Made by a program: the position numbers and the translations under genes | Sequence record: NC_028927.1 | DNA length: 64,000 bases | Reading direction: 5' to 3' (one strand) | Origin: Escherichia phage slur02 | Part shown: positions 38,721 through 39,176 of the stretch, in pieces | How positions within the stretch are numbered: position 1 is the stretch's first letter | Layout of the letters: each line of letters begins with the position of its first letter | Notes under the pieces: model-generated | Told to the model about the DNA's origin: nothing | Databases searched by the model: none | The model's input: only the letters and a program-made list of their open reading frames with translations

Positions 38721-39176
38721 TTATTTTAAATCGTCTGCCCAATCGAGTTTAAGAGGTTCTTTGTATTCACGATCTAATACGACCGGAATTTGTACATCAC
38801 CGCTAAATGATAAGGGCCCAACATTATAAGACAATGTTATATGCGGTGTGTAATCATCAAAATCATGTGTAGCACCTAGTGCCCGCGCATACATGTGTCG
38901 ACAGCGCAGATATTCAGAATCTAGCACAAGTACAAGAGTCGATCCATCTTGTGTTTTCCATACTTCTAAATGTCCAGAAGAAGCTACTTCAAAACTTCCA
39001 CTCGATGGAACATATGGAACATTTACTCTCGAATAACATATGGTCGAATGAATTTTTTCTCTAGGAACTGGATTAGGAACACGCAAAGAGCGCTGAAGTT
39101 CTTCCAGCGCATCAAGTGTTAATTCTGAAAACTTAGCTGCTACATAAAGACCCGTTGAAAAGTCTTTAAATTCCAT
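38721..39176 (-). CDS. 57B: 2H phosphoesterase, anti-CBASS Acb1 (gp57B)
   Basis: 151 aa; two H-x-T/S motifs (KIHSTICYS and PHITLSY); immediately precedes 57A as in T4. Confidence 0.8.

Follow-up and report, generated by a model that had tools for sequence, protein, structure and literature searches.

The ORF of interest on the minus strand of the Escherichia phage slur02 genome (NC_028927.1; the 64,000-nucleotide stretch that was analysed is referred to below as the window) is almost certainly acb1 (gene 57B) of a T4-like phage (Tequatrovirus), and its predicted product is a small metal-independent phosphodiesterase of the 2H fold. 57B/Acb1 is a well-known gene, encountered here in an already sequenced T4-like phage. 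The positions of the gene, its neighbour 57A and the functional segments are collected in Table 1.

Table 1. Positions of acb1 (57B), gene 57A and functional segments in the window.
Feature	Position	Strand	Basis or remarks
acb1 / gene 57B CDS	38721..39176	minus	ATG-initiated ORF, 151 aa + TAA stop (six-frame ORF list)
Gene 57A (tail-fibre chaperone), 80 aa	39176..39418	minus	Pfam PF17594, E 5.2e-51
TAATG junction, 57A stop TAA and 57B start ATG sharing one base	39174..39178	minus	sequence
Catalytic motif 1, H43-S44-T45 (T4 H44/T46)	39042..39050	minus	codons CAT TCG ACC; H43 and T45 in invariant columns
Catalytic motif 2, H112-I113-T114 (T4 H113/T115)	38835..38843	minus	codons CAT ATA ACA; H112 and T114 in invariant columns
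C-terminal lid, residues 144-151, LDWADDLK (T4 145-152), including W146 (T4 W147)	38724..38747	minus	identical to T4

Identity and residues of the slur02 Acb1

A BLASTP comparison of the slur02 product with residues 2–152 of T4 gp57B/Acb1 (NP_049750.1) gave 151 identities in 151 positions, and the two genes differed at DNA level by five codons, all of them synonymous (five synonymous, no non-synonymous changes). The Pfam Acb1 model (PF23474, curated cut-off of 27 bits) matched the protein along its whole profile (positions 1–144 of 144) with E = 2.6e-60 and 202.7 bits. The original prediction that Acb1 (gp57B) is encoded in this place was supported by the identity to the T4 protein and the full-profile match. 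The search of PDB sequences retrieved Acb1 of Erwinia phage FBB1 (7T26/7T27; E = 4.1e-62), with 68% identity over 141 aligned residues and one 1-residue gap. In tblastn, the 57B protein matched 1484 phage records, and in 497 the identity was at least 99%. No NCBIfam model matched the 57B protein.

The region 38000–40200 was 100% identical over its full length to Escherichia phages slur04, slur11 and slur13 and showed 95–99% identity to several hundred Tequatrovirus records (megablast). Positions 1–50000 of the window corresponded to 17812–67811 of NC_042130.1 (slur04) with zero mismatches, and the slur04 counterpart of 57B is the CDS FDJ55_gp263, with the RefSeq product name 'RNA ligase'.

The next gene beyond 57A was gene 1, encoding dNMP kinase (minus strand; PF21448, E = 1.5e-106). 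The order of 57A followed by an Acb1 homologue was found in T4 and seven other Straboviridae phages inspected, namely those with a named or noted upstream gene, including representatives of Tegunavirus, Krischvirus, Pseudotevenvirus, Slopekvirus and Mosigvirus. The position next to 57A was taken as supportive context for Acb1 and not as a formal criterion of the family. The ORF had originally been described as lying directly upstream of 57A; it does adjoin this gene, but because both genes are located on the minus strand, 57B is transcribed downstream (3') of 57A, and 'upstream' applies only to their order in plus-strand coordinates.

The scan of the translation with a regular expression revealed exactly two H-x-T/S motifs, HST and HIT, as previously noted. 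The conservation of these motifs was evaluated in an alignment of 11 sequences comprising slur02 57B, its T4 and FBB1 counterparts and eight homologues from other phages (Mosigvirus, Tegunavirus, Bragavirus, Krischvirus, Lazarusvirus, Pseudotevenvirus, Slopekvirus and one unclassified straboviral phage), with identity down to 36%. H43, T45, H112, T114 and Y11 were invariant and E140 was nearly invariant. Neither catalytic histidine was lost, and both motifs aligned with the HxT motifs of FBB1 (HST in slur02 with HTT in FBB1, HIT with HIT). The corresponding HxT/HxT tetrad of T4 (H44, T46, H113 and T115) constitutes the catalytic residues of Acb1, the H44A/H113A variant being used as the inactive control (PMC9117128).

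In T4 Acb1, the bases stack against Y12, W74, F107 and W147, N6 of adenine is contacted by E141 and the lid formed by residues 145–152 shuts over the ligand (PMC9117128). The stacking aromatics are represented in slur02 57B by Y11, W73, F106 and W146 and the adenine-contacting glutamate by E140, so that every residue reported as functional for T4 Acb1 was kept, numbered one lower. T4 Acb1 deprived of residues 145–152 did not activate Panoptes, which the authors regarded as confirmation that catalysis depends on the lid (bioRxiv 10.1101/2025.08.21.671373).

The de novo AlphaFold2 model of the 57B protein, built from single-sequence input, had a mean pLDDT of 37.9 and pTM of 0.30. Such a model was uninformative, and the 2H fold of the slur02 protein is assigned by homology to 7T26; the full identity to T4 Acb1 and the 68% identity to the FBB1 crystal structure are sufficient to decide the question. 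The FBB1 protein, known from a 1.1 Å crystal structure and deposited in the apo form (7T26) and with 3'3'-cGAMP (7T27), serves as structural template for both the 2H fold and the mechanism of the lid; the depositors described a compact 2H fold (PMC9117128). It differs from the slur02 protein in coming from another phage and host, in a Tyr in the place of F106 and in several surface substitutions. T4 Acb1 is like the slur02 protein in its 151-residue sequence, tetrad, stacking residues, lid and place downstream of 57A and gene 1.

Predicted activity against cyclic nucleotide signals

The original prediction stated that T4 gp57B had been shown to be Acb1, and this agrees with the literature: the cGAMP-degrading activity was purified from T4-infected cells, traced to 57B (NP_049750.1) and named Acb1 by Hobbs et al. 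2022 (PMC9117128). In the same work, the lysate of acb1-null T4 was assayed for the loss of cGAMP-cleaving activity. T4 Acb1 cleaved cyclic di- and trinucleotides that contain adenine (3'3'-cGAMP, cUA as well as cAAA, though not cGG) independently of metals, by acid–base catalysis 3' of adenosine, through a cyclic phosphate intermediate and with GpAp as the product. It kept the effectors Cap5, CapV and Cap4 from being activated, and wild-type and acb1-null T4 were compared in plaque assays on Y. aleksiciae and E. coli CBASS operon hosts (PMC9117128). A transposon screen indicated that 57B/acb1 was dispensable on K-12 but gained importance when the host expressed CBASS (bioRxiv 10.1101/2025.11.20.689424). 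The description of 57B as a known counter-defence gene holds for slur02 as well, its protein being the same as T4 Acb1 over residues 2–152.

The slur02 57B protein is predicted from its sequence to cleave adenine-containing cyclic di- and trinucleotides. In the proposed mechanism, the cyclic di- or trinucleotide immune signal would be bound in a U-shaped pocket with the C-terminal lid closing over it, its bases would be stacked on the Y/W/F/W side chains and one adenine would be read via Glu. The HxT/HxT tetrad would then carry out acid–base catalysis, in which the 2'-OH of adenosine attacks the 3'-5' bond, giving a cyclic phosphate intermediate and subsequently a linear product (GpAp from 3'3'-cGAMP). 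With the signal destroyed, the CBASS effectors would stay inactive and the infected cell would survive until the phage finishes.

The nucleotides degraded by T4 Acb1 also include 2'3'-c-di-AMP and cA3, and the enzyme consequently triggers type I and type II Panoptes guards; in Panoptes escape mutants acb1 was inactivated (PMC13577387; bioRxiv 10.1101/2025.08.21.671373). The identification of Acb1 in slur02 may serve as a reliable anchor and a predictor of phenotype. The phage should resist CBASS signalling by adenine-containing cyclic di- and trinucleotides and possibly also cA3-dependent effectors of type III CRISPR, and it should be vulnerable to Panoptes guards, which fire when Acb1 depletes the decoy nucleotide.

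The same fold and the same messenger-destroying strategy occur in the avian poxvirus cGAMP PDE, the 2'-5'-oligoadenylate PDEs of coronaviruses and rotaviruses and the phage 2H enzyme PDE-9, although these viral 2H PDEs differ from Acb1 in lineage and substrate range. T4 Acb1 was placed in the broad-spectrum 'structural group 3', whereas PDE-9 carries its lid at the N-terminus and leaves 2'3'-c-di-AMP intact (bioRxiv 10.1101/2025.08.21.671373). As a result, PDE-9 does not trigger Panoptes, unlike T4 Acb1.

The 57A/57B junction and the start codon

Just upstream of the ORF one base differed between T4 (GAATGATGGAA) and the slur02 window (GAATAATGGAA), the junction reading ATGATG/TGA in T4 and ATAATG/TAA in slur02. 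Due to this single G-to-A change, the annotated first ATG of T4 becomes ATA and the 57A stop codon TGA becomes TAA. With the first ATG lost, the second ATG of T4 is the sole start available in slur02, and compared with NP_049750.1 the protein lacks one residue, the extra N-terminal Met of the RefSeq annotation.

No convincing Shine–Dalgarno sequence was found before the 57B ATG. The overlap of stop and start codons of the TAATG type is a classic arrangement for translational coupling. The lack of a clear Shine–Dalgarno sequence, together with this overlap, makes the translational coupling of 57A and 57B likely, and the slur02 gene is probably expressed from the putative second-ATG start by coupling to 57A. 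In T4, 57B/acb1 is expressed mainly in the middle/late phase; by analogy, the same timing would be expected in slur02. The consensus scan of the region 38000–41000 detected 12 promoter sites (11.4 in shuffled sequence) and one terminator site (1.7 in shuffled sequence), with no terminator-like site between 57A and 57B. Because such counts were no better than in shuffled sequence, expression signals could not be assigned from consensus alone.

The occurrence of both start alleles was checked in other phages. An exact-pattern scan of IMG/VR identified the ATA allele in two contigs and the ATG allele in one. Megablast with 82-nt junction queries gave 111 records for ATA and 170 for ATG in the identity band of at least 99%, numbers which may be inflated by partial alignments since only 335 of 500 matches covered at least 80% of the query. 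Both alleles are common.

The G-to-A change could be regarded as a natural expression variant, in which the start is forced to the second ATG and the coupling to 57A is altered. If true, this variant could tune the Acb1 dose between CBASS evasion and the triggering of Panoptes-type guards sensing the depletion of cyclic nucleotides. The only observation in its favour is that both alleles occur in many phages, and such an explanation seems very unlikely.

The change of ATG to ATA at the annotated T4 start could also mean that the acb1 allele of slur02 is present but poorly expressed or silenced, the loss of the first ATG resulting from selection against Acb1 as a Panoptes-type trigger. Panoptes does select for acb1 loss of function, and in Bas43, a natural phage, acb1 contains a nonsense mutation (PMC13577387). 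However, the reading frame was uninterrupted and, starting at the second ATG, showed no amino-acid change, and the slur02 82-nt junction was shared at 100% identity with phages T2, wV7 and ECML-134 and Yersinia phage phiD1. The original record of the T4 tRNA region (X03016.1) annotated 57B as 'aa 1-151', i.e., from the second ATG, and the homologues of other genera started at or next to the aligned second-ATG position in the 11-sequence alignment. Taken with the coupling arrangement at the 57A junction, these data make a silenced allele extremely improbable.

The RNA ligase label and the relation to LigT

The 57B product carries the name 'RNA ligase' in PHROG 755 and in RefSeq, T4 NC_000866 and slur04 included; most GenBank records call it a 'hypothetical protein'. 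Of the records that the blast searches listed, a single one (Acinetobacter phage DLP2) used the name 'cyclic phosphodiesterase'.

Taken literally, the label would make 57B an RNA ligase or an enzyme of LigT-type RNA repair (2'-5' RNA ligase, or 2',3'-cyclic phosphodiesterase with broken tRNA as its substrate), with its position by the tRNA cluster reflecting this role. Apart from the RefSeq product name, found in slur04, T4 and many other records, such an interpretation could be based on the match of 57B to PHROG 755 (E = 5.2e-68), on the 2H fold common to 57B and LigT and on the cluster of 11 tRNA genes about 1 kb from 57B. However, the sole Pfam model of the RNA-ligase type that appeared was PF13563, whose score of 13 bits (E = 0.11) fell short of the 27-bit cut-off, compared with 202.7 bits for the Acb1 model; PF02834 did not appear even when E values up to 10 were allowed. 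The label is older than the biochemical identification of 2022, in which the T4 protein was purified by tracking its cGAMP-cleaving activity (PMC9117128), and no report of ligase activity of 57B was found. In T4, ipI separates 57B from the genes on the tRNA side, so the location beside the tRNA cluster is not a conserved feature. There is hardly any chance that 57B acts as an RNA ligase or in tRNA repair, and this interpretation of the database label was rejected.

The faint, sub-threshold match to PF13563 (LigT/2'-5' RNA ligase) covered residues 80–122, around the second motif. The LigT branch shares the 2H architecture with two HxT/S motifs, but the resemblance is at the superfamily level only, the substrates of Acb1 being cyclic oligonucleotide signals and not RNA ends. 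The name 'RNA ligase' was therefore treated as a stale label reflecting the superfamily link between 2H proteins and LigT. Such stale annotation is widespread, and the RefSeq, PHROGs and GenBank entries that give 57B as 'RNA ligase' or 'hypothetical protein' should read Acb1. The occurrence of a chance ORF in this location was ruled out by the full PF23474 match and the 151/151 identity to T4 gp57B.

Genes in the neighbourhood of 57B

Another ORF of the window, 88 aa long and located on the minus strand at 27722–27988, was of the Acb2/Vs.4 type, matching the Acb2/Tad1 hairpin domain (PF24729, E = 8.2e-20). It lies near regB and vs, as in the T4 vs.4 neighbourhood. Acb2 (Vs.4 of T4) serves the same purpose as Acb1, the neutralisation of CBASS signals, but has an unrelated fold and sequesters the signals rather than hydrolysing them. 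As judged from these assignments, the window would encode both a signal-degrading Acb1 and a signal-sponging Acb2-type anti-CBASS protein. With the Acb2 sponge gene also present in the window, the resistance predicted for slur02 is all the more to be expected.

In T4, ipI is located downstream of 57B, between trna.4 and 57B, whereas slur02 lacks ipI and its trna.4 homologue (38465–38650, 97% identical to T4) lies 70 bp from 57B (gap 38651–38720). No IpI homologue was detected anywhere in the window by tblastn with T4 IpI. The early-promoter-like sequence TTTACA-17 nt-TACTAT (38707–38679, minus strand), which precedes ipI in T4, was kept in slur02 before trna.4. IpI homologues were found in only 292 phage records, compared with about 500 records with the slur02-type Acb1, which points to the ipI locus being polymorphic.

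The published PCR primers for acb1 of Bas35 matched slur02 at 38600–38621 (one mismatch) and 39507–39530 (exactly).

For three neighbouring genes, all on the minus strand, the ORF caller extended the reading frame to an upstream TTG: gene 1 (39418–40182; 254 aa relative to 241 annotated), trna.3 (38080–38502; 140 aa relative to 127) and gene 3 (40193–40804; 203 aa relative to 176). The annotated ATG starts of these genes in slur04 and T4 give shorter proteins, and the lengths in the ORF list should be read with caution.

The tRNA cluster of slur02 (36671–37692, minus strand) comprised 11 genes (Arg, His, Asn, Tyr, Met, Thr, Ser, Pro, Gly, Leu and Gln), while eight are present in T4, and it was devoid of the homing endonuclease gene segB. 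The tRNA-Tyr gene (37020–37106) was called by ARAGORN and scored below the Rfam gathering score for tRNA. The 114-bp unannotated gap between tRNA-His and tRNA-Asn (36827–36940) had no match in Rfam. Just past tRNA-Arg, two ORFs on the minus strand encoded annotated hypothetical proteins of 157 aa (35441–35914) and 116 aa (36302–36652) with no Pfam match; in T4, rnaC and rnaD, both small stable RNAs, and gene e.8 occupy the corresponding place.
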